32,000 bases of DNA from an uncultured Candidatus Saccharibacteria bacterium (lineage in GTDB: Bacteria; Patescibacteriota; UBA1384; XYA2-FULL-43-10; 1-14-0-10-43-13): NCBI GenBank assembly GCA_964543385.1, contig CAZIYE010000001.1, positions 390,001 through 422,000 of the forward strand, given 5' to 3'. Below the pieces are notes generated by a model, which was not told the origin of the DNA, ran no database searches, and saw nothing but the letters and a program-made list of their open reading frames with translations. This document shows, one piece after another, positions 4,172 to 32,000 of this stretch. The number at the start of each line of letters is the position of its first letter. The stretch's first letter is position 1. Made by a program: the position numbers and the translations under genes.

Positions 4172-4379
4172 CACATTTAAAAAAACCAGGCCGCCACTTA
4201 CTTGATTTCGGCGGCAGCCTGGAGATGGGAAGGCGGGACCATTCCTCGTCTTCATCGGAGACGAACTCGTGTTCGTCGCTACGGCCGAGGGGCCGTGTCT
4301 GTTGCCCTTGCTTCGGGCAATCGGCGGTATCCATGCAGGAGCACGGACACAGATCATCATCGCGGCCACAGTCGGCCAT
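4122..4379 (-). CDS. Hypothetical small acidic Cys-rich protein (85 aa as drawn; 3' end uncertain)
   Basis: ATG at 4379 lies 7 nt after AAGGGGGA. Product is MADCGRDDDLCPCSCMDTADCP... Hand-counted GC1/GC2/GC3 over the first 57 codons is about 67/51/72%, a coding-like pattern. Caveat: no in-frame stop occurs before the terminator at 4179-4222, and the frame only closes 50 nt inside antisense atpG. Confidence 0.4.
   Translation of the reverse strand: MADCGRDDDLCPCSCMDTADCPKQGQQTRPLGRSDEHEFVSDEDEEWSRLPISRLPPKSSKWRPGFFKCATSLLPLRQISQQFHE
4179..4222 (-). terminator. Intrinsic terminator active on the minus strand only
   Basis: Minus strand reads CCAGGCTGCCGCC-(14 nt loop)-GGCGGCCTGG followed by T7. 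On the plus strand the A7 run precedes the stem, so atp transcripts should read through. Confidence 0.6.
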
Positions 4380-4426
4380 AGTGGTGTCCCCCTTTTCGAA
4401 ACGTTGTCCGGAAACCGGATGGGAGA
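4186..4426. other. GC-rich compositional island 1, in the atpG-atpD spacer
   Basis: Abrupt shift from AT-rich backbone to about 60% GC sequence. All-frame ORFs appear here because stop codons are depleted. Confidence 0.8.
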
Positions 4427-4427
4427 T

Positions 4428-4456
4428 ACAATAAAATAAATTAGTTAATATGTCAA
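4428..4456 (-). promoter_or_regulatory. Sigma70-like promoter for the island-1 ORF
   Basis: Minus strand has TTGACA (4456-4451), a 17-nt spacer and TATTGT (4433-4428). It lies in AT-rich DNA directly next to the atpD SD. AT-rich DNA produces such hexamers by chance. Confidence 0.35.
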
Positions 4457-19093: not shown

Positions 19094-19177
19094 TGGTGCC
19101 CGGGAGAGGACTCGAACCTCCACGGCTTGCGCCACCAGTTCCTAAGACTGGCGTGTATACCATTTCACCACCCGGGC
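19094..19177 (-). tRNA. tRNA-Leu (anticodon UAG), class II long variable arm, CCA encoded
   Basis: Minus strand reads GCCCGGGTGGTGAAATGGTATACACGCCAGTCTTAGGAACTGGTGGCGCAAGCCGTGGAGGTTCGAGTCCTCTCCCGGGCACCA. It has a perfect 7-bp acceptor stem, anticodon loop CTTAGGA and T-loop TTCGAGT. Confidence 0.95.
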
Positions 19178-19303
19178 AATGACAGGATTATATTATAAAT
19201 TCCCTGTTTTTTCAAGACGAAACCACTCGCCTATCTTAACCATTGCCTAAATAATCTATTTTCGGTATCATGATGCAGATCATTAATAAAACAAAAAACA
19301 ACT

Positions 19304-20233
19304 ATGGATTTTGGATCAATAATAATTGTAGTACTAGGCTTGTGTCTCTTCGAGGTTGTCTCGAGCATAGATAACGCAATAATAAATGCCGAAGTACTAT
19401 CAACGATGCAAGAAAAATATCGGAAATGGTTCCTTCTTTGGGGTATTATTTTTGCCGTCTTTCTTATCAGAGGCTTGCTCCCATGGATGATAGTTTGGTT
19501 TGCAACCCCTAGTCTTGGTTTCATTGGTTCCCTCACTGCAACATTTAGCAGCGACCCGAAAGTATTACATTCTATAGAAATGTCAGCTCCTATTTTGCTT
19601 GCCGGAGGTGGAACATTCCTAGTATTCTTATTTTTCCATTGGCTTTTTCTTGAGAGCAAAAACTTTGGTATTATTGGCGAAAAATTTTTCTATTCAAACG
19701 GCGTCTGGTTTTATGCCGTAGTTTCAATAATTTTAAGTGCTATAGTCTGCCTTGCGCTGCAGATGAATCCCCTGATGGCGTTTGGTGCGGTTATAGGGTC
19801 GACTGCCTTCTTCATCACTCACGGTTTCAAGCAAAATGCTGAGCAAAGTGAGCAAAAAATAATGAAAAGCGGCATGTCAGATATTAGCAAAATTCTGTAC
19901 TTAGAGGTTATAGATGCAACATTTTCAATTGACGGCGTTTTGGGCGCTTTTGCTTTCACCCTCTCTGTGCCTCTAATTCTAATTGGTAATGGAATCGGTG
20001 CTATAGTCGTAAGACAGCTGACCATGGGCAACATTCATAGAATAAAGAAATACGTTTTCCTAAAAAATGGTGCAATGTACTCAATATTATTCCTCGGAAG
20101 CATCATGCTTCTCGATAGTTTTGGTGTACACATAGCCAGCTGGGTATCGCCAGTCATCACATTTGGAGTAGTTGGATTCTTTTTCTTAAAATCCAAAAGA
20201 CACTTGGATAAAAATGGCTGTTTGGCCGTCTAG
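19304..20233 (+). CDS. DUF475/TerC-related integral membrane protein
   Basis: Polytopic, 309 aa. Motifs SSIDNAIINAEVL and YLEVIDATFSIDGVLGAFAFT. Confidence 0.6.
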   Translation: MDFGSIIIVVLGLCLFEVVSSIDNAIINAEVLSTMQEKYRKWFLLWGIIFAVFLIRGLLPWMIVWFATPSLGFIGSLTATFSSDPKVLHSIEMSAPILLAGGGTFLVFLFFHWLFLESKNFGIIGEKFFYSNGVWFYAVVSIILSAIVCLALQMNPLMAFGAVIGSTAFFITHGFKQNAEQSEQKIMKSGMSDISKILYLEVIDATFSIDGVLGAFAFTLSVPLILIGNGIGAIVVRQLTMGNIHRIKKYVFLKNGAMYSILFLGSIMLLDSFGVHIASWVSPVITFGVVGFFFLKSKRHLDKNGCLAV

Positions 20234-20339
20234 CTTACTTTTTGGATTTTACGGCCGGATAAGATAATTATTGCAATATCAAAACAAAGCAGTTAAAATA
20301 TACTTAACTAAAATATAAATATCTCAAAAGGAGGGATAT

Positions 20340-20969
20340 ATGGACTTTGGATGGAATAAACCTGCCAGTCAGGATCAAAATAATAGTACTCAAGTTACAA
20401 CAGATGATGCAAAAACTCCAGTAGTTGATGATACACCAGCTGCTACTCCTGCAGCAACGCCAGCTTCTTCGTGGGATTTACCTGGAGATAATAATAAACA
20501 AGACACTCAAGGCGGGATGACTTCCTCGGAGGAAGACTTAGACTTTTCGGCTAGTAAATCAGATGATTCTTTTGGCAACGATTTCACGGTCAACCCATCT
20601 ACTAATACGAAGCAGGTGGAGGATAATATACCAGAGGAAAAAGACGAAAAAGAAGCCTCCCCAGAAGATGATCAAGCAGAGACACCTTCTATAGAAAAGA
20701 CTGAAGAGGACCAAATAGAAGCGGTAAAAACAGAGATAGAGGAAAAATCAGAACCGACAGAAGATGATATTCAAAATGCGGCCCCAACAAATGGCGGCAA
20801 ATCTCTGACAGAGTTGGAGAATGATATATTGGGTCAAAAAAACAAAGTTGATAAAGATTTGGCTGATCTGCAAACAAAAGCTACCAAGCTCGAGGAGCTT
20901 CTCTCAAAGATTAGAAAAATGCAAGATGAGGAAAAGAATCTTATACAAGAAATATCAAGCGCCCTATAG
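20340..20969 (+). CDS. Hypothetical acidic low-complexity protein with a C-terminal coiled coil
   Basis: SD AGGAGGG. 209 aa rich in Asp, Glu, Thr and Pro. The C-terminus LTELENDILGQKNKVDKDLADLQTKATKLEELLSKIRKMQDEEKNL is heptad-like. Confidence 0.5.
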   Translation: MDFGWNKPASQDQNNSTQVTTDDAKTPVVDDTPAATPAATPASSWDLPGDNNKQDTQGGMTSSEEDLDFSASKSDDSFGNDFTVNPSTNTKQVEDNIPEEKDEKEASPEDDQAETPSIEKTEEDQIEAVKTEIEEKSEPTEDDIQNAAPTNGGKSLTELENDILGQKNKVDKDLADLQTKATKLEELLSKIRKMQDEEKNLIQEISSAL

Positions 20970-20984
20970 TAAGTTGTTTCTATA

Positions 20985-21012
20985 AAAAAGAGCTGATCAT
21001 CAGCTCTTTTTT
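20985..21012. terminator. Bidirectional intrinsic terminator
   Basis: AAAAAA-GAGCTGAT-CATCAGCTC-TTTTTT, between convergent genes. It overlaps the comEA stop. Confidence 0.75.
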
Positions 21013-21544
21013 ATATCGTTATTAGGTCCTTGATTTTATTGAAAATTAAATTACCTATCCCTTTTACCTCCTTGACCTGATCTATGGTTTTAAACCCGCT
21101 ATGACTTTGACGATATTCAACGATCTTTTTAGCATATGCCGGACCGATACCGGGCAGCGTATCAAGTTCCCCTTCAGACGCAGTATTGATATTTATTTTA
21201 CCAGGGATTTGTTTTACCACAGCTTTATGGGATTCTGGAGTAAAGTTGGTTATGCCCGCTACTTTTCCGCCATCATCACTAGATGATGATACCTCCTTAC
21301 TTTCAGAAATAAGCTTCTCAACTTCAACCGGCAAAGCAGACAAGTCTTCCTTTCTATCTTGCTCTAGAACAAAGAGCCTATTCTCGGCCAGACTCACTCT
21401 TTTTTTGATTTCAGGCATTAAGTAGTTTTCTCGCCAAAGTAAGAAAATCGAACTAGCTATAATTATGCAAAGTAATAATGAGCCAATCAAATACTTATAA
21501 TGTTCCACTATTGCACTAAAGTTATTAATTTTGGAATTTTCCAT
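21011..21544 (-). CDS. comEA: ComEA-family DNA-binding competence protein
   Basis: N-terminal TM segment. C-terminal tandem helix-hairpin-helix: INTASEGELDTLPGIGPAYAKKIVEYR and VKGIGNLIFNKIKD. Confidence 0.85.
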   Translation of the reverse strand: MENSKINNFSAIVEHYKYLIGSLLLCIIIASSIFLLWRENYLMPEIKKRVSLAENRLFVLEQDRKEDLSALPVEVEKLISESKEVSSSSDDGGKVAGITNFTPESHKAVVKQIPGKININTASEGELDTLPGIGPAYAKKIVEYRQSHSGFKTIDQVKEVKGIGNLIFNKIKDLITI

Positions 21545-21567
21545 TTAAATAAAGTTTTATCTAGCTC

Positions 21568-23616
21568 TTATTCTAAGTGTTTATTTATCAAATATTGCTG
21601 GATTTTTTCTAAAAGTATAGGATAATTACTTATTCTTGGCGCAATTTCCTTAGCTGCCTCCGAAGCTTCTAGAACCAATATTCTATCAGAGATAGAAGCC
21701 ATTTTAAGGTCAAGCATACCGGACTGCTCTAGGCCAAAGATTGCCCCTGGACCACGCATCTCCAAATCAACTTCAGCCAGTTGAAATCCATCTGATATTT
21801 CTTCAAGACTTTTTAGACGCTCTAACGCCTTTTCACTCTTTGTATTAGAGAAAAGAAAACAAAATGATTGATAACTGCTTCTGCCTACTCTGCCACGAAA
21901 CTGATGTATCTGAGCCAAGCCAAATCTTTCAGCATCTTCTACTATCATAACTGAAGCATTTGGGATATCCACGCCGACCTCAATGACCGACGTGCTGACC
22001 AAAATGTCGGTCTTGCAATCAGAAAAATCCTCCATAACACTCTCCTTTTCCTTGGATTTCATCTTGCCATGTAACATGCTAATTTTGAATTCTGGAAAAA
22101 TGTTCTTTAATTTTTCGAACTCTACCTTAACAGATTTCTGCTCCTCTTCCCATAACTCGCTCTTGACAATTACCAATTCTGACTTGTCTTCTATCAGCGG
22201 ACAAACAACAAACACCTGCCTTCCAGTTTTTATCTGTTTACCAATAAAGTCATATGCCTTTTCGCGGTTCCATGATTCAACAAAACGAGTCTTTATCTCT
22301 CTTCTATCCGTTGGCTTATCCCGAATAATAGAGACATCAAGATCTCCAAATAGTGCCAAATGGAGAGTTCGCGGAATAGGCGTCGCGGTCATGCTAAGAA
22401 AATGAGGTCTCATTTCAACTGATTGTTCATTGGATATCGAAAGTTGCTGCAAAGACTGCCTTTGTCTGACTCCAAAACGATGTTGTTCATCAACTATTAC
22501 TAATCCTAGGTTATCAATTTTGTCTAAATTTAATAATGCGTGAGTTCCTATAAGAATCGGCGCGCTATGATTTTCCTTCTTCGAAGACGTAACAACCCCG
22601 ATATTTTCATCACTAAATAATTTTTTAAAAACTTCATAATGTTGATTTGCTAGAATTTCAGTCGGAGCCATTAATATTGTTTTATAACCAGCTTTCTTCA
22701 CGACAGATGCTGCGATCGCTGCCACTATCGTTTTACCACTGCCGACATCGCCGTTTAACAAACGGTTCATCGGCATTGCCATCTCTAAATCTTGCACGAT
22801 TTGCCAAAGTGCCTTCTTTTGATCTCCTGTCAGTTGAAATGGCAGATTGCCAATAAAATCTTTTAAATCATCAAGACTAACTAAAACTGGCGGCGCCTTC
22901 TTTTCCGCAATCTCCAGTTTGGCAATATTAGCCTTTAATGAAATGGCAAATAGCTCATCAAAGGCTAAACGTCTCCGTGCCTCCTGAAGTCTCGAAGCGC
23001 TGTTTGGTTCGTGAATGTTGGAAATTGCTTCTTGAATTGAGATTAATTTATGCTTATCTAGCACTTCTTTCGGCAACCATTCAGAGATTTCTTCTGTGTA
23101 TTGTTTTACTTTTGAATAAACCTTCGCAATGAAAAAGCTGGTCATCCCGGCTGTTTCGGAATAAACTGGAACAATTTTAGCTGAGTTTGATCTTGTTGGT
23201 GACTCCATCGTGTACAATTTAGAGAAGCTATCAAATTTTACCGGCCCGTTCAGAGTCAGTTTACTACCGTTTCCTAGCATCTTGGCCAAATATGGCTGGT
23301 TAAACCATATTACTTTTAGCGATCCGGTATCATCAGCAACAACCGCTTCTGTGACTGTAAAACCTCTTCTGCGCGTCTTTTTATTAGCGATACCCAAAAG
23401 AGTCCCTTTTATCGTAAATACTTCCTTATTTTGGTTCTGACCAACTTTGTTACCTAGATCATTAATCTGAGTTACTGTTGTATAATCCTCATACTTTCTT
23501 GGAAAATAAAAAAACAGGTCATGAGGACATTCAAGACCTAATTTCTTCAATTTCAAAAAACTCTTCTCACCGATACCAAGCGCTTCTATATCTATAAATT
23601 TTTTATACAAATTCAT
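21568..23616 (-). CDS. recG: ATP-dependent DNA helicase RecG
   Basis: 682 aa. N-terminal wedge/OB region, Walker A GDVGSGKT, DEQH box VIVDEQHRFGV, motif VI HQFRGRVGR. Confidence 0.95.
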   Translation of the reverse strand: MNLYKKFIDIEALGIGEKSFLKLKKLGLECPHDLFFYFPRKYEDYTTVTQINDLGNKVGQNQNKEVFTIKGTLLGIANKKTRRRGFTVTEAVVADDTGSLKVIWFNQPYLAKMLGNGSKLTLNGPVKFDSFSKLYTMESPTRSNSAKIVPVYSETAGMTSFFIAKVYSKVKQYTEEISEWLPKEVLDKHKLISIQEAISNIHEPNSASRLQEARRRLAFDELFAISLKANIAKLEIAEKKAPPVLVSLDDLKDFIGNLPFQLTGDQKKALWQIVQDLEMAMPMNRLLNGDVGSGKTIVAAIAASVVKKAGYKTILMAPTEILANQHYEVFKKLFSDENIGVVTSSKKENHSAPILIGTHALLNLDKIDNLGLVIVDEQHRFGVRQRQSLQQLSISNEQSVEMRPHFLSMTATPIPRTLHLALFGDLDVSIIRDKPTDRREIKTRFVESWNREKAYDFIGKQIKTGRQVFVVCPLIEDKSELVIVKSELWEEEQKSVKVEFEKLKNIFPEFKISMLHGKMKSKEKESVMEDFSDCKTDILVSTSVIEVGVDIPNASVMIVEDAERFGLAQIHQFRGRVGRSSYQSFCFLFSNTKSEKALERLKSLEEISDGFQLAEVDLEMRGPGAIFGLEQSGMLDLKMASISDRILVLEASEAAKEIAPRISNYPILLEKIQQYLINKHLE

Positions 23617-23634
23617 TAGCCAGAAAATTGATAG

Positions 23635-23844
23635 TTATCTTTTCATCGTTATTGATGCAGATGCTACCATTATAACTCCCAAAACAAGAAAAGCACCACC
23701 AATCCATAACAGAATACGGAATATGTCTGCACTTGGATCGACGTAAGTACTGTCAGCACCAACGCTACCAACACCCAACGATGTTGCGACAGCAATAATA
23801 CCGAACAGAAAAGCGAAGAAACCAAACGTAAATACTTTTTTCAT
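23635..23844 (-). CDS. Hypothetical 69-aa two-TM protein
   Basis: SD AGGAGA. Two hydrophobic helices. Located immediately downstream of the MacB-like gene. Confidence 0.45.
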   Translation of the reverse strand: MKKVFTFGFFAFLFGIIAVATSLGVGSVGADSTYVDPSADIFRILLWIGGAFLVLGVIMVASASITMKR

Positions 23845-23853
23845 AATTTTCTC

Positions 23854-25806
23854 CTATTCATATCTTAAGGCTTCTAACGGCGATAATTTGGCTGCTCTTC
23901 TTGCGGGGTATAAGCCAGCCAAAAGCGAAACTAATACAGTTAAGACTACCATCTCGATGGCGAAAAAGGTAGGGGTTATAAATATTTGCATTGATCCCGG
24001 AATGTCGCTCATTTTCATCAATAGATTTACTATGAAATTTACAAATTCTCCAAAGAAATAAGTAGAAAGAACTCCGGCAAGTGAACCATAAAGCCCAAAC
24101 ATAATCACTTCATATTCAAAAATACGTTTTATATCGATATTTGTTGCTCCGATAGCCTTCATTATTCCAACTTCGTGTGTTCTCTCCAGCAGAGATATAG
24201 TCATGATGTTTACTATACCAATAAGTGCAACTATCAAGGCGACACCACCAATTACTCCAAGAACAATTTGCATGATAAGAAATACTTTGTCAACTTGCTT
24301 TATAAGATCAATAACTGAAGATGTTGTAAAACCAGCTCTTTCGATATTATCCCTGACTGATTCAACCTTAGATCGATCTGACGCTTTAACCTTGACGCTA
24401 TTATATTTGCCTACTCCTGTTATTTTTTTCGCCGATTCCAGAGATATGATAGCCGTACTTAGTAATTCATCACCATAAACACCAACAATTTTTTCATCCA
24501 ATTCAACACTTTTTAGATCAGATATTTTACCAGATTCCTCCGAGACAACAAGCATTGTTAATTTGATGTTCTTACCTACTGCAGTTGAAGGATCTTTTAT
24601 ATCAAAATTCTTTAAAAGACCTTTAGATACTACCACTCCTGACTTGTCAGTAAATTTACTACCAGAGATTAAAATAACTCCTTCAAACTCTAGCGCATTA
24701 GGAGCAATCCCCTGCACAATTATCTGAGAGTTAGAGCTGTCTATGTTCGCCTTAGAGGCAACAGTTACAGATGGACTTACAATAGCAACATTTGATATTT
24801 TTTTAAGTTTATCTACTGCTTTATCATCAAGGTTTTCTATCGAATTCTTGCTCAAAGATACATTAATAGTCACCAATGCATCGAGAGAAGCCAGCTGGCT
24901 TGAAGTTATTTTCTGAAGACCAACCCCAAGAGAAACCAACGTAACTATTGATCCGACGCCCATTGCAACACCAAGAGTTGTTAAAAAACTCCTCAGTTTA
25001 TTGCTAAAAAAATGAATTCTAGAAAAACGAAGGGTTTCTAGAATCTTCATTGATCCTTTTTTATTGGAAACATAGTATTTAGGAGTCTTGCTGTCTTCAG
25101 AATAGGAGGTGCTTTTATTATTACTATCAACCCTTACCATCTCGCCATCACGCATATATAATATTCTGTCGCCAAATTTAAGAAAATCAGGATTATGAGT
25201 GACTAGAACAATCGTCCTACCCCACTTCTTATTGATCTTGCATATTAGATCCATTATCTCATTCCCTGTCGGTATATCTAGATTTCCAGTAGGTTCGTCA
25301 ATCAGGAGAATCCCTGGATTTGCCGACAATGATCTAGCAATTGCAATTCGTTGTTGTTGCCCTCCGGACATCTCCGAGGGCCTATGGTCTGCTCTATCAC
25401 CAAGTCCAACAACAGCAAGAAGCTCTTCTGCTCTGGCATGAGCCTCTTTTCTATTAACTCCAGACAAGATCAAAGGCATTGCTACATTGTCTCGCGCAGA
25501 AAGTGTCGGAACAAGATTAAATTGCTGAAATACCATACCGACCCTAGTTCGGCGATATTCAGATAACTTGTTCTCTTTTAGATCAAATATATTAGTCCCC
25601 TTATAGAGAACTTTACCCAATGAAGGATAATCCAAACCGCCCAGAAGACTTAAAAGTGTGCTCTTGCCACAACCAGATGGCCCAAAAACAACCACAAATT
25701 CACCAGCATTTATGTCAAAAGTAGCACCTTTAAGTGCCTGTACCTCGTTTTCTCCAACGAAAAACGACTTCTGTAGATTATCAACTCTGATTACAGGCTC
25801 TTTCAT
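23854..25806 (-). CDS. MacB-like fused ABC transporter (N-terminal ATPase plus FtsX-type permease)
   Basis: Walker A GPSGCGKST, signature MSGGQQQRIAIAR, Walker B LLIDEPTGNLD. These are followed by a TM helix, a large extracytoplasmic domain and a C-terminal FtsX-type helix bundle. Confidence 0.88.
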   Translation of the reverse strand: MKEPVIRVDNLQKSFFVGENEVQALKGATFDINAGEFVVVFGPSGCGKSTLLSLLGGLDYPSLGKVLYKGTNIFDLKENKLSEYRRTRVGMVFQQFNLVPTLSARDNVAMPLILSGVNRKEAHARAEELLAVVGLGDRADHRPSEMSGGQQQRIAIARSLSANPGILLIDEPTGNLDIPTGNEIMDLICKINKKWGRTIVLVTHNPDFLKFGDRILYMRDGEMVRVDSNNKSTSYSEDSKTPKYYVSNKKGSMKILETLRFSRIHFFSNKLRSFLTTLGVAMGVGSIVTLVSLGVGLQKITSSQLASLDALVTINVSLSKNSIENLDDKAVDKLKKISNVAIVSPSVTVASKANIDSSNSQIIVQGIAPNALEFEGVILISGSKFTDKSGVVVSKGLLKNFDIKDPSTAVGKNIKLTMLVVSEESGKISDLKSVELDEKIVGVYGDELLSTAIISLESAKKITGVGKYNSVKVKASDRSKVESVRDNIERAGFTTSSVIDLIKQVDKVFLIMQIVLGVIGGVALIVALIGIVNIMTISLLERTHEVGIMKAIGATNIDIKRIFEYEVIMFGLYGSLAGVLSTYFFGEFVNFIVNLLMKMSDIPGSMQIFITPTFFAIEMVVLTVLVSLLAGLYPARRAAKLSPLEALRYE

Positions 25807-26075
25807 CTTTTCTCTATCTCTTCCTCTAATTCCTCTACCTCGCGCTCCACCTCCAACAACTTAGTCATTGACTCAAACGCAGTGATAGTTAGCAACACGG
25901 TGATCACAGAAATTGTAATGAATACTCCTGCTACGATTGCCTTCTTTTGAAATGAAGATTCTGGATAATAGAAGAATAGTACGATGCCCAATACTAGTAA
26001 AAAGATAGCGACGATTATCCCAACCAACAAGAGTAGATAAGAACCCATTTTGATCAATTTTTTGTTGTTTGCCAT
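25803..26075 (-). CDS. Hypothetical 90-aa two-TM protein with an acidic coiled-coil tail
   Basis: Its stop overlaps the MacB-like start (ATGA). The tail is KLLEVEREVEELEEEIEKR. Confidence 0.45.
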   Translation of the reverse strand: MANNKKLIKMGSYLLLLVGIIVAIFLLVLGIVLFFYYPESSFQKKAIVAGVFITISVITVLLTITAFESMTKLLEVEREVEELEEEIEKR

Positions 26076-26250
26076 TTTAAAAATTTAGATTAGATAATAG
26101 CCAAAAAGGTGCCAACGACAAATCATTGCACACATAAGAATATAAAGCCTAGTACAGTCATACCCCTCGCTTTCCACAGTATTTATAGCTTGATCCAAGC
26201 TACCGTTTATCTATAAATAAATTATAACAATTGGAAAGCAATTATACAAA

Positions 26251-27405
26251 CTAATCAACTCTGTCGATTATGCCGCCGCCGACAACTTCATCGCCATGAT
26301 AGAAGACAGCACTTTGCCCGGGAGTGACGGCTCTTTGTGATACATCCAGAATGACCTTGAACTTTCCTTCCTGAATCTCATTGATTTGGCAGGTGACCTC
26401 TCTGGCCTTATACCGAATTCTAACCTTTAAATCTCCATAGTCTGATCTGGGACCAGTCCAATATGTATTTACAATTTCAAACTCTTTTTTATATAGATCT
26501 TCATCAGCGCCGACAATTAGCTCATTTTTGCGTAAATCAAATCCAATAGCATAAAGAGGCTTCTTATTTTCACCTTTATTCATAATTTTTAATTCTTGAT
26601 TGACATCCTTACGTTGGCCGATTGTGTAGTTAACCAACCCGTTATGAATACCTACTGTAAAACCACTCTTGTCAACAATTTTACCGGATTTAAAATATGA
26701 CTCGTCTAGATGTCTTTTTAGAAATTCACGATAATCATTCCCTGCTACAAAACAAATTTCTTGGCTATCTTTTTTCTTATAAGTAAGCAGACCTTCTTTC
26801 TCTGCAATTGCCCTAGTGTCTTCCTTGCTCATTTCTGAAAGTGGAAATACAACTTTAGAGAGTTTATCCTGACCAAGCTGATACAGAAAATAAGATTGAT
26901 CCTTAGCTTTATCAAAGCCCTTAGAGAGATGATAAAATTCTTCATCATCTTGGGTTATTTTTGCATAATGTCCAGTCGCAAGCTTATCGCATCCAACTTT
27001 TTCCGCAAAATCTAAAAGCCATCCAAACTTTATTTTTTGATTGCATAGAATGCATGGATTTGGGGTTCTTAGGTTTTTATATTCATCAATAAAATAATCA
27101 ACGATCTCTTTTTTAAACACCTTCCGAGCGTCTACTACATAAAACGTTATTCCTAATTGAGTAGCAACTTTGCGTGCATCCATCAAGGCTCGTTCATCGC
27201 AGCAAGCATTCTCCGATGTACCGCAAGGATCGTGCCAAAGCTTCATAAAAAAGCCGACAACATCATATCCTTGTTGTTTTAGAAGCAACGCTGAAACAGA
27301 GGAATCAACTCCTCCGGACATGCCCACCGCAACTTTTATTTTCGATTTGTCCAATATAATTCCATTCTGATATAGAACTTGATGATACCCTTGATCTGTT
27401 ACCAA
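26251..27405 (-). CDS. mnmA: tRNA 2-thiouridine(34) synthase MnmA
   Basis: PP-loop GMSGGVDSSV, motif NPCILCN, C-terminus TPGQSAVFY. Both candidate starts are TTG: 27405 (track), and 27354, which gives the more typical N-terminus M-DKSKIKVAVGMSGG. Confidence 0.93.
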   Translation of the reverse strand: MVTDQGYHQVLYQNGIILDKSKIKVAVGMSGGVDSSVSALLLKQQGYDVVGFFMKLWHDPCGTSENACCDERALMDARKVATQLGITFYVVDARKVFKKEIVDYFIDEYKNLRTPNPCILCNQKIKFGWLLDFAEKVGCDKLATGHYAKITQDDEEFYHLSKGFDKAKDQSYFLYQLGQDKLSKVVFPLSEMSKEDTRAIAEKEGLLTYKKKDSQEICFVAGNDYREFLKRHLDESYFKSGKIVDKSGFTVGIHNGLVNYTIGQRKDVNQELKIMNKGENKKPLYAIGFDLRKNELIVGADEDLYKKEFEIVNTYWTGPRSDYGDLKVRIRYKAREVTCQINEIQEGKFKVILDVSQRAVTPGQSAVFYHGDEVVGGGIIDRVD

Positions 27406-27419
27406 ATAAATGGTATAAA
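27391..27419 (+). promoter_or_regulatory. Candidate sigma70-like promoter for the island-3 ORF
   Basis: TTGATC (27391-27396), a 17-nt spacer and TATAAA (27414-27419), in AT-rich DNA at the 5' end of mnmA. Confidence 0.35.
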
Positions 27420-27434
27420 TATGCTTATCATTTT

Positions 27435-27459
27435 CGATATCCTAACGGATATCGTTTTT
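27435..27459 (+). promoter_or_regulatory. Perfect 8-bp inverted repeat plus T5 in the predicted leader (attenuator hairpin or operator)
   Basis: CGATATCC-TAAC-GGATATCG followed by TTTTT, lying between the candidate -10 and the SD GGAGGA (27475-27480). Confidence 0.5.
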
Positions 27460-27465
27460 GGTAAA

Positions 27466-27693
27466 ACCCCTATTGGAGGATGTTCGATGATTAACCCCTG
27501 CCTGCGCGCCCAATTGCGGCGCGACGTCGCCCGTCGCTGGAAGGCGACCACGGAAGCACTCCGTAACTCTGAATGCCAGAACTGCGTTCTCGCAGACAGC
27601 GGATCGTGCGCTCCGGCCAACTGTCCGGGCCATCAGGCCCAATCGCGGCACTAGCCGCACTGCGTCCCGCCACTCCCCTCAAAGGAGTGGCGG
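27466..27693. other. GC-rich compositional island 3, in the mnmA-folD spacer
   Basis: Hand count of the ORF gives about 65% GC, against about 37% in a folD sample line. Confidence 0.8.
27487..27654 (+). CDS. Hypothetical 55-aa basic Cys-rich protein
   Basis: GGAGGA lies 6 nt before the ATG. Product is MINPCLRAQLRRDVARRWKATTEALRNSECQNCVLADSGSCAPANCPGHQAQSRH. Hand-counted GC3 is about 73%. TAG stop lies 12 nt before a strong terminator. Confidence 0.5.
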   Translation: MINPCLRAQLRRDVARRWKATTEALRNSECQNCVLADSGSCAPANCPGHQAQSRH

Positions 27694-27701
27694 TTCTTTT
27701 T
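27667..27701 (+). terminator. Intrinsic terminator active on the plus strand only
   Basis: CCGCCACTCC-CCTCAAA-GGAGTGGCGG followed by TTCTTTTT. The T-tract overlaps the folD stop codon on the opposite strand. Confidence 0.8.
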
Positions 27702-28542
27702 ATCCAACAACATTTTTAAACAACATTGCAATAGTTACTGGTCCTATCCCACCAGGGACAGGAGTATAATAACGTGACTTTTCGTAAGCTTCTGGATCAA
27801 TATCGCCAATAAAATCACCATTTTCCTCTGCCGTTCCAGCGTCGATTAGAACAACGCCGTCTTTGACCATATTTTCTTTTATTAATTTTGGGCTACCCGT
27901 AGCAGAAATTATAATGTCAGCATCCTTGATTGTTTCTACAAGATCATTCTTGCCTTTGTTGACCACCCTTAGATCAGCTTCTTTAAAATCCTCAATCAGA
28001 CATTTCTGAAGTGGTGAGCCGACAAGAAAACCAAGACCTACTTGAGCAATCTTAGTTTTTTCATTTATTCTGGCTCCAGAACGTTTTATAGCTTCAAGAA
28101 TTGCTAAAACGACCGGCGGTTTAAATTTAGAGTCCAACCCTGCACAGAAGCGAAGACCGTCAATGTCCTTGTCAGGACTGATTTTTGCAATCAGCTTTTC
28201 TCGGCTGAAAACTTTAGGAAGAGGAATTTGGATCATAATACCATCAGTCTCTGGATCATTATTCAAATAGTTTATAGCTTCAATAATTTCTTCCTCTGAA
28301 TCCTTCTCACCAAATGTATATAGGCAAAACTGGATACCAGTTTTCTCAGCCATTTTCTTTTTTAGCTCAACATACTGACGACAAATAGGATTATCTCCAA
28401 TCAAAAAAACAGCCATTGTTGGCTTTCTCTTCATCGTTACTATTTTATTTGCAAGATCACTCAAGATTTCGTCTCGGATCTTTTTACCATCAAAATAATT
28501 TTCCATACGAACTATATTAGCAGAAAACACTCGACTTGTCAT
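27700..28542 (-). CDS. folD: Bifunctional methylenetetrahydrofolate dehydrogenase/cyclohydrolase
   Basis: C-terminal block YTPVPGGIGPVTIAMLFKN, plus IISATGSPKLI. The start may instead be the ATG at 28506 (MENYFDGKKIRDEIL). Confidence 0.92.
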   Translation of the reverse strand: MTSRVFSANIVRMENYFDGKKIRDEILSDLANKIVTMKRKPTMAVFLIGDNPICRQYVELKKKMAEKTGIQFCLYTFGEKDSEEEIIEAINYLNNDPETDGIMIQIPLPKVFSREKLIAKISPDKDIDGLRFCAGLDSKFKPPVVLAILEAIKRSGARINEKTKIAQVGLGFLVGSPLQKCLIEDFKEADLRVVNKGKNDLVETIKDADIIISATGSPKLIKENMVKDGVVLIDAGTAEENGDFIGDIDPEAYEKSRYYTPVPGGIGPVTIAMLFKNVVG

Positions 28543-28554
28543 CAGTATTAGCAG

Positions 28555-28947
28555 CTATTTATTTTTCTTGCCTTCATAATCAGCGATAGCCTTTTGCAGA
28601 GCTTCAGCCGAAAGAATCGAACAGTGATATTTTTGTTTCGGCAAAATACCAAGAGCTTTATTGATGTCATCTCTAGTCATTTTCTTGACTTCCTTAATAG
28701 TCGCTCCTTTAGCAAGCTCTGTCATCATACTCGAAGCAGCAATAGCTGCTGCACAACCAAGCGTCTTGAACTTAACATCCTCGATATAATCAATGCCGGC
28801 CTCATTCTTGGCTACCTTAATATAAACATGCATAATATCACCACACTTCATATTTCCAACTTGACCGACACCATCAGCATTCTCAATCTCCCCCACATTG
28901 CGTGGATTATAGAAATGATCTAATGCTTCTTTTGTATACTCTTCCAT
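28555..28947 (-). CDS. iscU: Fe-S cluster assembly scaffold, IscU/NifU-like
   Basis: 130 aa with the three scaffold cysteines (KCGD, LGCAAAIA, YHCS). Confidence 0.9.
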   Translation of the reverse strand: MEEYTKEALDHFYNPRNVGEIENADGVGQVGNMKCGDIMHVYIKVAKNEAGIDYIEDVKFKTLGCAAAIAASSMMTELAKGATIKEVKKMTRDDINKALGILPKQKYHCSILSAEALQKAIADYEGKKNK

Positions 28948-28969
28948 ATATATCCTTGAATTATAGCCT

Positions 28970-30193
28970 CTACTTAAATGGGCTCATCTTTCTTAATTTA
29001 TCAATAATTCCTGGCAAAACTTCAATAACTTTATCAACTTCCTCATCGGTTGTATAACGACTTAGAGAAAATCTGATTGAACCATGTGCCTTCTCTGGCA
29101 CAATACCCATAGCCGATAAGACATGACTAGGATCTAATGATCTTGAAGTACAGGCAGACCCTGATGAAACAGCAATCCCTAAGAAATCCAGATTCAACAC
29201 GATGGCCTCTCCCTCAGCATTTATAAAACTGAAATTTACAATATGAGGTGCATGCCTCTCTTTGCTACCGTTGAATATTATATCGGGTATAGATTTTTCC
29301 AGAGAAGTAACTAATTTATCTCTAAGCTTTATAAGCCTTTTTGCTTCATGGCTAAACTTTAGCTCTGGCAGACCATTATTGATCAAATTATCAGACTCAG
29401 ATCTCTCTTTAAGGATAAGATCAAGCGCTTTTGAAAAACCTGCTATTCCAGAAATGTTCTCCGTTCCTGCTCTTTTGCGTAGTTCCTGACTGCCACCAGT
29501 GATTTGAGATTTTATTTTAATATTATTTCGAAGATACAAAGCACCGATCCCCTTCGGTCCATGAAGTTTGTGAGCCGTGAATGTTAGCAAATCGACTTTC
29601 AAATACTCAGGTGAAATCTCAAAAAATTCTGCAGCTTGGACAGCATCAGTATGAAAATAGATCCGACTCTCTTCGTCACGATTTATATTTTCTTTTTCAA
29701 GCATGAGACCAATCTCCCTGATAGGAGAAATTACGCCGGTCTCATTATTAACATAGATTATTGAAACTAACGTTGTATTGTCTTTTATAGCTTCTCGGAC
29801 TGAATCAGCTGAAATAATCCCATTATTATCAGGTTTGATATAAGTAGCTTCGACTTTACCCTCTTTTTCAAGATCTTGTATTGTATGAAGCACAGCATGA
29901 TGCTCGACCGCACTTGTAATGATATGGGCTTTCTTTCCACTTTCCACTATTCCCCTGATCGCTAGATTATCTGATTCGGATCCACCAGAAGTAAAAATTA
30001 TCTCCTCAGGCTCACAGCCGGCAAAGAAGCTAACGAATCGGCGCCCATCATCTATTATTTTCCTCGCCTCCTGACCGACAGAATGAATTGATGAAGGATT
30101 GCCAAAATATTTCGAATTTACATCGTTTATTGTCTGAACCACCTCTTTTGCGACTTGAGTCGTCGCAGCGTTGTCTAAATATATTCTATCCAT
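28970..30193 (-). CDS. iscS: Cysteine desulfurase (NifS/IscS type)
   Basis: PLP-lysine motif FTAHKLHGPKG and active-site loop SSGSACTS. 407 aa. Confidence 0.93.
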   Translation of the reverse strand: MDRIYLDNAATTQVAKEVVQTINDVNSKYFGNPSSIHSVGQEARKIIDDGRRFVSFFAGCEPEEIIFTSGGSESDNLAIRGIVESGKKAHIITSAVEHHAVLHTIQDLEKEGKVEATYIKPDNNGIISADSVREAIKDNTTLVSIIYVNNETGVISPIREIGLMLEKENINRDEESRIYFHTDAVQAAEFFEISPEYLKVDLLTFTAHKLHGPKGIGALYLRNNIKIKSQITGGSQELRKRAGTENISGIAGFSKALDLILKERSESDNLINNGLPELKFSHEAKRLIKLRDKLVTSLEKSIPDIIFNGSKERHAPHIVNFSFINAEGEAIVLNLDFLGIAVSSGSACTSRSLDPSHVLSAMGIVPEKAHGSIRFSLSRYTTDEEVDKVIEVLPGIIDKLRKMSPFK

Positions 30194-30216
30194 AAAAACT
30201 CTATGATTTAATCAAC

Positions 30217-30426
30217 CTACTCATTAATCTTTTTAGCTATTTTTCTTAAATCCTGCAAACAGGCTTTGCAGCCAGAACCAGAGATTAAATTTTCAAATTC
30301 CTCTTTTGAAACGAGATAAGCAACCGACTTTGAATACCTATTAACTTCATAAATTTCCCCTGCTTCAACTTCCTTAATAATTTTCGAAAGGTGATTTTGT
30401 AATTCGTTTGTAGTAATTTTTTTCAT
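30217..30426 (-). CDS. Phd/YefM-like antitoxin-fold small protein, with no toxin partner
   Basis: ITTNELQNHLSKIIKEVEAGEIYEVNRYSKSVAYLVSKEEFENL matches the Phd/YefM N-terminal pattern from memory. iscS begins 24 nt downstream. Confidence 0.5.
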   Translation of the reverse strand: MKKITTNELQNHLSKIIKEVEAGEIYEVNRYSKSVAYLVSKEEFENLISGSGCKACLQDLRKIAKKINE

Positions 30427-30442
30427 ATATGTTTATGGTTAT

Positions 30443-30490
30443 GTAATATAACAAGTAATATAACAAGTAATATAACAAGTAATATAACAT
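30443..30490. repeat. Tandem 12-bp direct repeat GTAATATAACAA x4 (last copy ends in T)
   Basis: Read directly. It occupies the leader of the Phd-like gene, and the last copy contains the candidate -10. Confidence 0.95.
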
Positions 30491-30509: not shown

Positions 30510-30520
30510 TTAGTAAACAT

Positions 30521-30574
30521 AAAACGAAAACGAGCCCTGGTACATCATGTACACAGGGCCCGCTCGGATTTTTG
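30521..30574. terminator. Stem-loop terminator at the left border of island 4, with T-tracts on both strands
   Basis: Imperfect stem CGAGCCCTGGTACAT / ATGTACACAGGGCCCGCTCG. It is flanked by AAAACGAAAA on the left (GTTTTCGTTTT on the minus strand) and GATTTTT on the right. Confidence 0.65.
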
Positions 30575-31843
30575 ACCTGAGCGCGAACGCCCGGGTCATC
30601 TCCCACTTCCTTTGTTCAGCTCCACCAGCGGTCCGATGACCACCTTCTGGAGCATGATCCTACGATTCTCGGGGTTCCGCAGCCTCCAGCTGTCTCCTCC
30701 CAGGAATCGGCGCTGCTCAGCAGCAGACAGCCCCTTCCAGCGTGGATCCTTCGCCTGAGCGGCGATCTCAGCATCGCTGTTTGGGACGCCGCACTCGAGT
30801 AGCACCTTGTTCTCGATCGTGTTATAACCACCGAGAACATCGAAGGTCTTTGCTAAAGTGCAGTTGACTGGCTTGCCGAACCGTTTCCGGCCATAGCCCT
30901 GATCAAGCAGAACATTCTCGATCAGTCCGGCCAGTTGTCCAGTGTTACCTCGTCGGTGACACTCACGCAGCCCTGACCAACCATTGCTACCCAACGAGTC
31001 CACATGGAGCTCGACGAATGCACTAGTGGTACAGTTCTGGTGATCAGACTGGGCTTGGGCAGCAGCTTTCGCTCGGTCGACTGTGTCAGAGGAGTTCTGC
31101 ATGGGGTTTCCCCCATATAAGACAGCCTCTTTTGGCAACGGCAGAGGATCTTTTGGCCCAGTCACCTGGTCCATTGATTCAGCCTCGGCCGCATATACCA
31201 CAGTCGCACCGAGAGCTTCAGCCATCAGGCCAAGCTCACGCGCCATCCGATAGGTATAGGCGGCTTCCCAGTAGGCTTCTCCGTCGAATACCCAAGAGCA
31301 TCCGACGTCGAGACCATAACTGGTTACAGCATCACGGCCACCATGACCGGGGCTAACGACCAGCAACTGACCCAATAGGGCGTTCTGGCCATATTGCGCT
31401 ACGATTGCCCTACGCTCTGCTTCGGAGAAGCTGAGTTTGGGGCCTCGGGGCAGAAGTTTGCCAAGGCCTTGCGGCTCCTGGGGCTCCTGCACAGTCGTGC
31501 CGGGCTTTACAGCCGGCTTGTGCTGGTTCCACGGGTGCCACAAGAGCACGCCGAGAACCAACAACAGGAAAAGACTTGCCATGATAACGCCGAAGCGGTT
31601 CTTAGCATAGTTTTCTGCATAGGAACTACCGAACCCTGCAAAGAACGCAATGACTGCCGCCATCAGGGCTTCGAGGACCATCCACAGGCCCTGCAAAAAT
31701 GCGAGGGCTTTGGGGTGGCGGCGCCCGAAGGTCGCCCAACGCTGTTGAATCCGCATGATTTTTCTCCTTTTCAGAGCTGCCACGTGCGGTTGGACAGCTC
31801 AAGTGTTCTTCTCGCCGGATGTGTAGAATTTCCAGCGTAGACT
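30531..31843. other. GC-rich compositional island 4
   Basis: About 1.3 kb of clearly GC-rich sequence with sharp AT-rich borders on both sides. Confidence 0.85.
30596..31756 (-). CDS. Membrane-anchored N-acetylmuramoyl-L-alanine amidase-like protein (Amidase_3/MurNAc-LAA-like)
   Basis: I prefer the ATG at 31756, which follows AAAGGAGA. Two N-terminal hydrophobic helices. Motifs VVSPGHGGRD, GEAYWE, ELHVDS and VLLECGVPNSD follow the Zn-amidase pattern GHGG...E...H...E. TGA stop lies 29 nt before the terminator. Confidence 0.55.
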   Translation of the reverse strand: MRIQQRWATFGRRHPKALAFLQGLWMVLEALMAAVIAFFAGFGSSYAENYAKNRFGVIMASLFLLLVLGVLLWHPWNQHKPAVKPGTTVQEPQEPQGLGKLLPRGPKLSFSEAERRAIVAQYGQNALLGQLLVVSPGHGGRDAVTSYGLDVGCSWVFDGEAYWEAAYTYRMARELGLMAEALGATVVYAAEAESMDQVTGPKDPLPLPKEAVLYGGNPMQNSSDTVDRAKAAAQAQSDHQNCTTSAFVELHVDSLGSNGWSGLRECHRRGNTGQLAGLIENVLLDQGYGRKRFGKPVNCTLAKTFDVLGGYNTIENKVLLECGVPNSDAEIAAQAKDPRWKGLSAAEQRRFLGGDSWRLRNPENRRIMLQKVVIGPLVELNKGSGR

Positions 31844-31878: not shown

Positions 31879-31893
31879 TGGTAAAACATTGAC
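31874..31893. promoter_or_regulatory. Perfect palindrome GTCAATG-N6-CATTGAC spanning both divergent -35 boxes (candidate operator)
   Basis: Read directly: aaGTCAATGgtaaaaCATTGACaa. Confidence 0.5.
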
Positions 31894-31917
31894 AAATAGC
31901 TAATATAGTGATAAAGT
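31889..31917 (+). promoter_or_regulatory. Sigma70-like promoter driving the gene at the right window edge
   Basis: TTGACA (31889-31894), a 17-nt spacer and TAAAGT (31912-31917). Confidence 0.4.
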
Positions 31918-31970
31918 AGCGAGTCGATCAATCCTGATCCGACAACTCTGACACACAGAAGGAGGGCAAC

Positions 31971-32000
31971 ATGCCCCGAAACTCTCGCAGAACACGTCGT
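31971..32000 (+). CDS. 5' end of an unknown GC-rich gene (MPRNSRRTRR...), truncated by the window
   Basis: GGAGGG (31961-31966) lies 4 nt before the ATG. Sequence is GC-rich from 31918 onward. Only 10 codons are visible. Confidence 0.35.
   Translation, partial: MPRNSRRTRR

Follow-up and report, generated by a model that had tools for sequence, protein, structure and literature searches.

Comparison with relatives identifies the GC-rich block at positions 27475-27700 of the 32,000-nucleotide stretch of Saccharibacteria DNA analyzed here (the window) as the coding part and terminator of a genuine, previously unannotated small protein gene under selection. The gene belongs to a cassette of ~380 bp that lies antisense between folD and mnmA and, on the evidence of the same comparison, is present in three species-level Saccharibacteria lineages and is equipped with an AT-rich promoter, a leader hairpin, a Shine-Dalgarno site, and an intrinsic terminator of its own (Table 1). 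Overall, we consider it likely, but not secure, that this is a real accessory small-protein gene that is swapped by recombination, encodes a product of a metal-binding type, and originated from high-GC DNA. A preliminary description of the locus had proposed a stand-alone promoter-leader-RBS-ORF-terminator cassette encoding a small basic Cys-rich protein, and the relatives support that proposal; the promoter hexamers, leader hairpin, GGAGGA with ATG 6 nt downstream, 55-codon ORF, and 10-bp GC-rich hairpin that it listed were all found in place.

Table 1 Features of the cassette and its flanks, with positions numbered from the first nucleotide of the window.
Feature	Position	Strand	Detail or basis
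mnmA flank	26251..27336	-	Pfam tRNA_Me_trans domains
Whole allele-specific segment (cassette and remodelled gene ends)	27322..27703	+	Comparison of empty and filled alleles; homology to the L077 segment
Promoter-like site	27391..27419	+	-35 TTGATC 27391-27396, 17-nt spacer, -10 TATAAA 27414-27419
5' leader hairpin CGATATCC-TAAC-GGATATCG, then T5	27435-27454 (hairpin); 27435..27459 (with T5)	+	8-bp stem, loop TAAC
Shine-Dalgarno site GGAGGA	27475-27480	+	ATG (27487) 6 nt downstream
CDS of the 55-aa protein MINPCLRAQLRRDVARRWKATTEALRNSECQNCVLADSGSCAPANCPGHQAQSRH	27487..27654	+	TAG stop 27652-27654
Codons of the metal-binding-type motif C30-x2-C33-x7-C41-x4-C46-P-x-H49	27574..27633	+	Comparison of three homologues
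Small hairpin GCGGC-ACTA-GCCGC with the stop codon inside its loop	27645..27658	+	RNAalifold pair
Intrinsic terminator, stem CCGCCACTCC / GGAGTGGCGG, 7-nt loop, then TTCTTTTT	27667..27701	+	10-bp stem, 8 G-C pairs
folD flank	27700..28542	-	Convergent with the small gene; Pfam THF_DHG_CYH and THF_DHG_CYH_C

The promoter-like site was not called by a strict sigma-70 consensus scan because its TATAAA lacks the final T. A TG at 27411-27412, upstream of this hexamer, makes it an extended -10 element (TGgTATAAA, 27411-27419), and the arrangement TTGAYM-N14-TGN-TATAAA is common to four sequences, those of the window and of the relatives L030, L077, and L021. The leader hairpin is kept in the same four sequences, with changes in the loop and one at the top of the stem; together with its T5 run it looks like an intrinsic terminator, which makes it a candidate attenuator or 5' stabilizer. 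The Shine-Dalgarno site is also present in L030, L077, and L021, with a spacing of 8 nt, and a GGAG-type motif occurs upstream of ~40% of the native genes in the window. At the 3' end, the terminator stem (27667-27693) begins 12 nt past the stop of the ORF and its tail reaches the folD stop codon (27700-27702). The terminator is kept in L030 and L077, where a single A-to-G change preserves a G-U pair. On the minus strand the hairpin is not followed by a T-run, so that read-through from folD to mnmA is not obviously blocked. In L030, the smaller hairpin around the stop codon has A-U in place of a G-C pair, a compensatory change with weak statistical support. Where mnmA begins is uncertain, since cassette-bearing alleles have ATA in place of the ancestral ATG of the empty allele.

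The GC-rich stretch is open in four of its six frames, and three antisense ORFs of 63-73 aa overlap the 55-aa ORF. The length of the ORF is therefore uninformative by itself, and its significance derives only from comparison with relatives. Two further Saccharibacteria lineages, both stemming from other runs than the window, have homologous ORFs in this folD-mnmA slot and orientation: the ORF of L030 encodes 50 aa and that of L077 55 aa. A Logan contig of another assembly, seen in four samples, is 100% identical to window positions 19133-30472. Differences at codon positions 1/2/3 number 4/4/13 between the window and L077 and 6/10/22 between the window and L030 (pooled chi-square p = 1e-4), and NG86 dN/dS is 0.24, 0.17, and 0.23 among the three copies; these ratios, like the residue conservation described below, rest on three homologues of 50-55 codons. 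The indels between homologues measure 12 and 3 nt, both in frame, and the RBS, ATG, and stop are kept across all three copies. Alternative frames give pN/pS > 1, except for an antisense frame that shares third positions with the ORF, and this frame is interrupted by stops and spans merely 27 aa in L030. The preliminary description had held that conservation without codon periodicity would indicate an RNA element; the third-position excess, the dN/dS range of 0.17-0.24, and the in-frame indels favor coding instead.

The same observations weigh on the idea that the ORF is open by chance within high-GC DNA that was acquired horizontally and is now decaying without function, an idea consistent with the foreign composition and codon usage, the several open frames of the GC-rich stretch, the lack of homologues in protein databases, and the lack of the gene in many strains. 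Retention of the ORF, start, stop, and RBS in three lineages over a dS of about 1 argues against such decay, as do the low dN/dS, the in-frame indels, and the conserved promoter and terminator, so that this reading is already disfavored and, in our judgment, very improbable.

Alternatively, the GC-rich block might serve primarily as a structured small RNA in which the ORF is incidental; this could be an sRNA or a molecule antisense to the intercistronic folD-mnmA transcript. GC-rich islands within AT-rich genomes are a classic signature of noncoding RNA, and the block folds better than shuffled sequences (z = -3.5 on the plus strand and -4.1 on the minus strand), has a promoter and terminator of its own, and would yield a transcript fully complementary to folD-to-mnmA read-through RNA. 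Its high GC content has been held over a dS of about 1, and in RNAalifold 55 pairs are common to the two sequences, four of them with compensatory changes, although the covariation control is weak (30/500, with two sequences from which the structure itself was derived). Against an RNA with an incidental ORF, third codon positions take most of the substitutions, indels are in frame, the RBS and ATG are kept, and synonymous change between the window and L030 is as fast in the ORF as in the flanking genes (pS 0.56 versus 0.62; dS about 1). Searches of Rfam over the whole window brought only a tRNA-Leu to its gathering score; between 27300 and 27800 the best score was 18.6 bits, terminator-driven, against a gathering score of 40, and beyond such terminator-like noise the block had no match even at E up to 10. 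We consider a primarily structured RNA quite unlikely. The high GC content at a dS of about 1 and the four compensatory pairs make some selection on the RNA itself possible within the protein gene that we favor.

The nifS, iscU, folD, and mnmA genes form a conserved block in which folD and mnmA abut or overlap in most relatives. The preliminary description had suggested checking whether the mnmA-folD spacer is empty in relatives, and it proved empty in six (L031, L034, L035, L036, L079, and L080), with the junction ranging from overlapping to 10 nt. A single species comprises both an empty allele (L079) and a filled one (L077), whose flanks are 100% identical; the 26 nt that connect folD to mnmA in L079 are replaced by 384 nt in L077. 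The latter carries the window-type folD end, and its segment is homologous to that of the window. The folD genes of L021, L033, L035, and L076 are 97-100% identical, and the folD proteins of L077, L079, and L080 belong to the same 90%-identity cluster. Despite this near-identity of folD, the slot is either empty or holds a gene of the 55-aa type or two other small genes. The alleles compared document a polymorphism of presence, absence, and alternative content in at least one species, and the sequences mark the cassette as a strain-variable accessory mini-gene. Whole alleles, including the last folD codons and the first mnmA codons, have apparently been swapped by homologous recombination; between the window and L077, pS is 0.28 in the ORF versus 0.74 in folD (Fisher p = 1e-7). 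Saccharibacteria are reportedly naturally transformable.

Other routes of entry were rejected. The filled allele has replaced 26 nt and includes diverged gene ends, unlike the clean insertion with duplication expected of an IS, MITE, integron cassette, or similar transposon-like element, and neither a transposase nor a target-site duplication was found at the cassette. Terminal repeats are likewise lacking, and the window holds no second copy of the island, which also speaks against a DGR or other repeat-templated origin. One alternative occupant of the slot, a 43-aa basic protein of L076 with a CPHC..Cx4C pattern, resembles the window copy of the 55-aa protein in a Smith-Waterman shuffle comparison (p = 0.005), but does not significantly resemble the L030 copy; with an hhalign probability of 1%, this leaves only a hint of homology between the two proteins.

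The composition of the ORF is foreign to its surroundings. The preliminary description had estimated ~65% GC and a GC3 of ~73% for the ORF, close to the computed values of 64% and 0.73; GC content at codon positions 1/2/3 is 0.64/0.58/0.73, whereas the flanking genes have a GC3 of about 0.30. Codon usage is foreign as well, with GC3 of 0.62-0.73 and every Arg encoded by CGN, which would suggest that the ORF came from a high-GC donor. No source of the GC-rich DNA was found by tblastn and blastn against phages and plasmids or by pattern scans of viral contigs and JGI metagenomes, and neither the protein pattern nor the leader DNA pattern had a match in these last two collections. A 17-nt pattern from the ORF gave 39 viral matches, all of them due to chance as judged by tblastn.

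A more far-reaching scheme, which we regard as unlikely, would treat the GC-rich mini-cassettes of the window as one class of element comprising the folD-mnmA cassette, an antisense atpG/atpD cassette, and an amidase gene. In each, an AT-rich promoter of native type and a leader hairpin would drive a high-GC ORF with its terminator. Saccharibacteria would domesticate host-derived high-GC DNA in such expression slots within conserved operons and pass these slots from species to species by natural transformation, and the product considered here would be a metal-dependent RNA or DNA binder with an Arg-rich helix whose targets serve host interaction or self-regulation, its own leader hairpin being one example.

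Residues C30, C33, C41, C46, P47, and H49 of the 55-aa protein are invariant in 3/3 homologues (window, L030, and L077), whereas the C33-C41 spacing varies, with seven residues in the window and L077 and three in L030. The preliminary description had counted five Cys with CxxC and Cx4C spacing; four of these are conserved, and the fifth, C5, is Tyr in L030. The four conserved Cys form two closely spaced pairs and, with H49, are candidate metal ligands. In a single-sequence AF2 model (mean pLDDT 77), the N-terminal part forms a long helix and the rest a coil, with low confidence in the Cys-rich tail, and a helix plus coil is too simple for a meaningful fold search. The helix is the best-conserved part of the protein. 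An amphipathic, membrane-active helix was rejected, its hydrophobic moment being no higher than in shuffled sequences. Net charge is +2.6 to +6.5, and no signal peptide, double-glycine motif, or hydrophobic segment was found in the protein. The product would be a cytoplasmic basic mini-protein with a pI of about 9-10, in which a polar Arg-rich helix (residues about 4-28) precedes a four-Cys (plus His) knuckle of the form C-x2-C-x3-7-C-x4-C-P-x-H. From this pattern, the protein probably binds metal. The knuckle would most likely chelate one metal ion, with Zn2+ the likeliest and an Fe or Fe-S center possible, and chelation would fold an otherwise unstructured tail. The metal-bound knuckle and the Arg-rich helix could then bind a nucleic acid or protein partner, which would make the protein a small regulator or an accessory factor. 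The preliminary description had raised a partnership with the island-1 product, for which no evidence was found.

The Fe-S option could be taken further, with the product being a mini iron-sulfur protein, ferredoxin- or WhiB-like, tied to the neighboring nifS-iscU-mnmA sulfur and Fe-S genes. The gene does lie inside the nifS-iscU-folD-mnmA block, and its motif C-x2-C-x3-7-C-x4-C-P closes with the Cys-Pro that also ends the cluster motifs of ferredoxins. High-GC Actinobacteria and actinophages encode WhiB-like [4Fe-4S] proteins, which are small and basic with four Cys; the 55-aa protein shares their size, charge, and four Cys including a C-x2-C, and its high-GC CDS would fit pickup of a gene from an actinobacterial host. 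The spacing, however, is unlike both patterns: WhiB has C-xn-C-x2-C-x5-C, with a first Cys that finds no conserved counterpart here, and of the Fer4 motif C-x2-C-x2-C-x3-C-P only the terminal C-P is shared. Neither Whib nor Fer4 in Pfam matched even at E up to 10, and the G[VI]WGG turn is absent. Moreover, the gene is antisense to the operon, and its slot is vacant in most relatives and occupied by unrelated genes for small membrane proteins in other strains; because it is variably filled or empty, the position marks an insertion hotspot and not a functional link. We view a dedicated iron-sulfur role as unlikely.

A similarly improbable reading makes the protein the precursor of a ribosomally synthesized Cys-rich peptide, of RiPP, bacteriocin, or effector type, that is modified after translation or exported and acts against or on the host bacterium. 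Saccharibacteria are epibionts, the protein is small and cationic with a leader-like N-terminal helix and a Cys-rich C-terminal part, and the slot is strain-variable and holds small membrane proteins in other strains. In length (45-55 aa) and in this division into helical and Cys-rich parts it is like SCIFF/ranthipeptide precursors, from which it differs in lacking an adjacent radical-SAM or other maturase and in having its best conservation in the N-terminal part, an unusual pattern for a leader destined only for removal. As the preliminary description had noted, no maturation enzyme is adjacent: the neighbors are the housekeeping genes folD, mnmA, iscU, and nifS, with no protease or transporter among them. 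No model of SCIFF or another RiPP precursor in NCBIfam or Pfam matched, and the lack of export signals and of helix amphipathicity described above also counts against a peptide precursor.

Searches for relatives of the metal-binding-type protein that we favor covered several collections. An exact look-up of the 55-aa product returned no record, a word-indexed search of 5.8 billion proteins had no match, and the gene is absent from the gene calls of the Logan contigs and from every protein collection searched. Three phmmer matches among 1.84 billion representatives were rejected as spurious, all being long tandem-repeat proteins with scores summed over 5-17 weak stretches. Profile searches of Pfam, NCBIfam, and PDB gave nothing significant among zinc-finger, rubredoxin, ferredoxin, WhiB, or other models (best E = 0.06-0.19), including NF045720, an RCKP-type rubredoxin-like domain (13 bits against a cut-off of 45, E = 0.057), and PF18445, a zinc knuckle reached by the L030 copy only (13 bits against 25.8, E = 0.092). 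PADLOC had no match to anti-phage defence, and the best PHROG hit (E = 0.026) was to a family without assigned function.

The gene is a solid but modest discovery, and illustrates that real, selected small genes in Patescibacteria escape automatic annotation. It also indicates that the tightly packed nifS-iscU-folD-mnmA operon of a reduced epibiont genome is a hotspot at which strains and species acquire, lose, and trade tiny accessory cassettes. The strongly foreign composition of the gene, with its high GC content, is a hint of an origin among high-GC organisms, perhaps the actinobacterial hosts. If a function is found for the product, it would define a new family of small metal-binding proteins and perhaps offer a handle on strain-specific host interaction.

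Among known proteins, a local likeness to the LRCxxC motif of CcmH (PDB 2kw0 and 2hl7), pairing EALRNSECQNCVLADSGS with EELRCPKCQNNSIADSNS, was put down to chance (E = 0.19-0.54 over 21-23 residues, with the CxxC pairs out of register); the 55-aa protein lacks a signal peptide and a membrane anchor, and was not matched by CcmH of Pfam. Small proteins of the zinc-knuckle, zinc-ribbon, and rubredoxin-like types are alike in being tiny and basic with two tight Cys pairs, one of them C-x2-C, and the tail of the 55-aa protein, as in zinc-knuckle-type proteins, is predicted to be unstructured unless metal is bound. In contrast to these proteins, its second pair is C-x4-C followed by P-x-H, its pairs are separated by a spacer of 3-7 residues, and a long Arg-rich helix comes before the knuckle. 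At the level of the locus, the cassette resembles the flexible islets of naturally competent bacteria, which are strain-variable and exchanged by recombination: identical flanks enclose either no gene, this gene, or other genes, mobility genes are lacking, and the cassette is younger than its flanks. It differs from flexible islets in its size of about 380 bp with one gene, in its antisense placement, which splits operon genes that formerly abutted or overlapped, and in its strongly GC-rich cargo behind an AT-rich promoter.

The GC-rich block between folD and mnmA (27475-27700; 62-76% GC, window mean 39%) is not an assembly artefact, because a Logan contig assembled independently and found in four samples matches window positions 19133-30472 with 100% identity. 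That contig ends inside a 12-nt tandem repeat (30472) and inside tRNA-Leu (19133). All elements that the preliminary description had listed for a self-contained cassette, from promoter to terminator, are present on the plus strand (Table). The leader hairpin is terminator-like and lies ~10-30 nt downstream of the presumed transcription start. As is usual for GC-rich DNA, the 55-codon ORF is overlapped by antisense ORFs (three, of 63-73 aa), so its presence alone is unremarkable. Its composition is foreign to its surroundings, with GC1/2/3 of 0.64/0.58/0.73 against a GC3 of ~0.30 in neighbouring genes, and with CGN at all seven Arg codons where native genes favour AGA. A 13-nt direct repeat within the ORF (27508-27520, GCCCAATTGCGGC; 27637-27649, GCCCAATCGCGGC) encodes AQLR and AQSR.

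Table. Positions of the cassette, of other features in the window, and state of the folD-mnmA junction in relatives
Feature	Position	Strand	Remarks
mnmA	26251 to ~27336	-	flanks GC-rich block
Promoter-like hexamers	TTGATC 27391-27396, 17 nt, TATAAA 27414-27419	+	TG two bases upstream
Leader hairpin	27435-27454	+	8-bp, then T5
RBS	27475-27480	+	GGAGGA, 6 nt to ATG
55-codon ORF	27487-27654	+	
Terminator	27667-27693	+	perfect 10-bp stem 12 nt past ORF stop, then TTCTTTTT into folD stop codon
folD	27700-28542	-	flanks GC-rich block
atpG-atpD mini-cassette promoter	4456-4428	-	TTGACA-17-TATTGT, then leader hairpin, AAGGGGGA RBS
atpG-atpD putative ORF	4379-4197	-	acidic 61-aa Cys-rich protein (MADCGRDDDLCPCSCMDTADCPK...), then hairpin and T7
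Third-island promoter	31878-31850		TTGACT-17-TATAAT with TG, strong
Third-island gene	30596 to ~31756	-	~390-aa protein, N-terminal TM segment, sub-threshold Amidase_3 match (E = 2e-5)
Third-island terminator hairpin	near 30525-30560		
L031	junction 5 nt		empty
L034	junction 10 nt		empty
L035	junction 1 nt		empty
L036	folD-mnmA overlap		empty
L079, L080	junction 1 nt each		empty
L030 homologue	same place and orientation		folD 85% aa identity to window; protein MISPYLRAQLRRFVARRWEATTAALRKPKCTNCNGSCSPANCPDHGQSQR
L077 homologue	same place and orientation		folD ~83% identity to window; protein MITPCLRAQLRREVARRWKATTEALRNSECQNCELADTSSCSPTNCPGHQAQQRH

Related contigs were gathered through folD and mnmA homologues. 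The nearest genomic relatives of mnmA are MAGs labelled Candidatus Saccharibacteria (L021, 89% identity over the N-terminal 129 residues; L002, 58%). The preliminary description had asked whether the mnmA-folD spacer is empty in relatives, and it is empty in six. Therefore, the tight folD-mnmA junction in the nifS-iscU-folD-mnmA block is widespread and probably ancestral. Two other lineages, L030 and L077, carry homologous cassettes that keep the promoter hexamers with TGn, the leader hairpin, GGAGGA, ATG, stop position, and terminator. Both units of the 13-nt repeat have near-identical copies at the same positions in these two cassettes.

Codon periodicity in relatives had been proposed to separate a protein from an RNA element, and the outcome favours a protein. 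Differences at codon positions 1/2/3 number 4/4/13 between the window and L077 and 6/10/22 between the window and L030 (chi-square p = 0.02 and 0.004; pooled 1e-4), Nei-Gojobori dN/dS is 0.24, 0.17, and 0.23 for the three pairs of copies, and the two indels, of 12 and 3 nt, are in frame. Among the other five frames, pN/pS exceeds 1 in four; the fifth, the antisense frame sharing third positions, is interrupted by stops and extends for only 27 codons in L030. The RNA itself could nevertheless make some contribution to conservation of the region. RNAalifold on two sequences kept 55 pairs in both, four of them compensatory, with a control (30/500) that is weak because the structure derives from the same two sequences. 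The island region also folds more stably than shuffled sequences on both strands (z = -3.5 and -4.1), as expected for a GC-rich block with a terminator, and Rfam found only tRNA-Leu in the window, with no meaningful match at 27300-27800 even at E up to 10. The homologues and the codon-position bias thus support the core of the preliminary description, a small-protein gene cassette, and from these comparisons we take the ORF to be a real, unannotated, strain-variable gene with a conserved four-Cys motif.

The slot between folD and mnmA varies even among close relatives. The folD proteins of L021, L033, L035, and L076 are 97-100% identical to each other (81-85% to those of the window and L030) and therefore mark one species-level group; those of L077, L079, and L080 fall in the same 90%-identity cluster. 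The slot of this group stands empty in L035, L079, and L080, carries the GC-rich gene in L077, and carries a two-gene cassette in L076; L033 shares the terminator of that cassette. Between empty L079 and filled L077 the flanks are 100% identical on both sides, with 26 nt in the former and 384 nt in the latter, and no target duplication or terminal repeats were found in this comparison. The filled L077 allele combines a window-type folD C-terminus (..VVG*) with its own mnmA 5' end. In the window-L077 comparison, pS is 0.28 in the ORF against a saturated 0.74 in folD (Fisher p = 1e-7), and identity is 87-88% across ORF and terminator but only 64-83% in the promoter-proximal part. ORF divergence between the window and L030 is similar to that of the flanks (pS 0.56 vs 0.62). 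The simplest reading is an old accessory cassette, with alleles that related species would have exchanged through homologous recombination. Such exchange fits the natural competence reported for Saccharibacteria. The ORF and terminator have stayed GC-rich in three AT-rich genomes over dS ~1, which could reflect incomplete amelioration of foreign DNA or selection acting on the mRNA.

Insertion also remodelled the mnmA translation start. In empty alleles the gene begins ATG AAG GTT GC.., which reads ATA AAA GTT GC.. in every cassette-bearing allele (window 27319-27351), so mnmA must start elsewhere in these, the candidates being an internal Met at 27321 (356-aa NCBI product) and TTG at 27405 (Logan call). 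The L021 scaffold does not differ from L077 across promoter, leader, RBS, and 'ATGAT'; there follow 37 nt of AT-rich sequence (3085-3121; MMRKKRILKSSL) and then a 10-N gap, in which the folD 3' end is also lost. L021 thus represents either a further (third) allele or a scaffolding chimera.

Small genes have repeatedly landed in the nifS-iscU-folD-mnmA operon. In L002 (5284-5985), folD and mnmA are separated by genes for two small proteins with two TM segments, and each of these genes has its own RBS and terminator. The L076 slot (2473-3000) encodes a 63-aa two-TM protein and then a 43-aa basic Lys-rich protein with CPHC...Cx4C (MTEKKGEKKKQTDRPARILKENQCPHCGMIENPKTHVCAVFNC). The latter has the CxxC...C[A/S]xxNC layout of the window protein but AT-rich codons, and the resemblance is a hint at most (shuffle p = 0.005; hhalign probability 1%). 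Five small genes lie between iscU and folD in L036 (681-2854). L002 and L036 are more distant Saccharibacteria relatives, and their extra small genes are unannotated or of no assigned role.

Elsewhere in the window, a second antisense mini-cassette (4179-4429; 59% GC) separates atpG from atpD in the atp operon; its putative product has no protein-family match. A third GC-rich island (30518-31801; 57% GC, 1.28 kb) gave no tblastn match to phages or plasmids. In the last stretch (31889-32000), a further GC-rich ORF (MPRNSRRTRR...) begins at 31972 (+), is preceded by TTGACA-17-TAAAGT and an AGGAGGG RBS, and continues past the window end. The tandem repeat, GTAATATAACAA, is perfect (x3.9; 30443-30489) and separates a PhdYeFM-type antitoxin gene from the third GC-rich island.

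Across the three homologues of the 55-aa protein, M1, I2, P4, L6-R12, V14-W18, A20-T22, A24-R26, C30, N32, C33, S40, C41, P43, N45, C46, P47, and H49 are invariant. Four cysteines of the five-Cys pattern first described are thereby conserved; the fifth, C5, is replaced by Tyr in L030, which leaves four Cys and a His as the conserved ligand set. Seven residues separate C33 from C41 in the window and L077, and three do so in L030. The homologous proteins are basic (net charge +2.6 to +6.5; pI 8.8-10.3), and both a signal peptide and a hydrophobic segment are absent. In the single-sequence AF2 prediction, residues 4-36 form a helix and the tail is coil (pLDDT 77 in the best model, 47-64 in the others); the N-terminal helix is polar and Arg-rich but not significantly amphipathic. 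These features suggest a cytoplasmic metal-binding knuckle, most likely for Zn, with the attached Arg-rich helix perhaps binding nucleic acid or a protein partner.

Profile searches with the protein gave no match in Pfam, nothing useful in PHROGs or PADLOC, and no significant match in NCBIfam (best, RCKP rubredoxin-like domain, E = 0.057, 13 bits where the cut-off is 45) or the PDB (best, CcmH LRCxxC motif, E = 0.19). Two large protein collections held no true homologue, the exact product was absent from the record on exact look-up, and phage, plasmid, viral-contig, and JGI-metagenome searches for the cassette or protein were all negative. That no protein database has it is partly an annotation blind spot, because gene callers skip the ORF on all three cassette contigs (window-matching Logan, L030, L077). 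Among known small Cys-rich proteins, WhiB-like, ferredoxin-like, and SCIFF-like readings each lack a defining feature. The protein represents a new orphan family of ordinary kind, and the value of the cassette lies mainly in its population dynamics and foreign composition.
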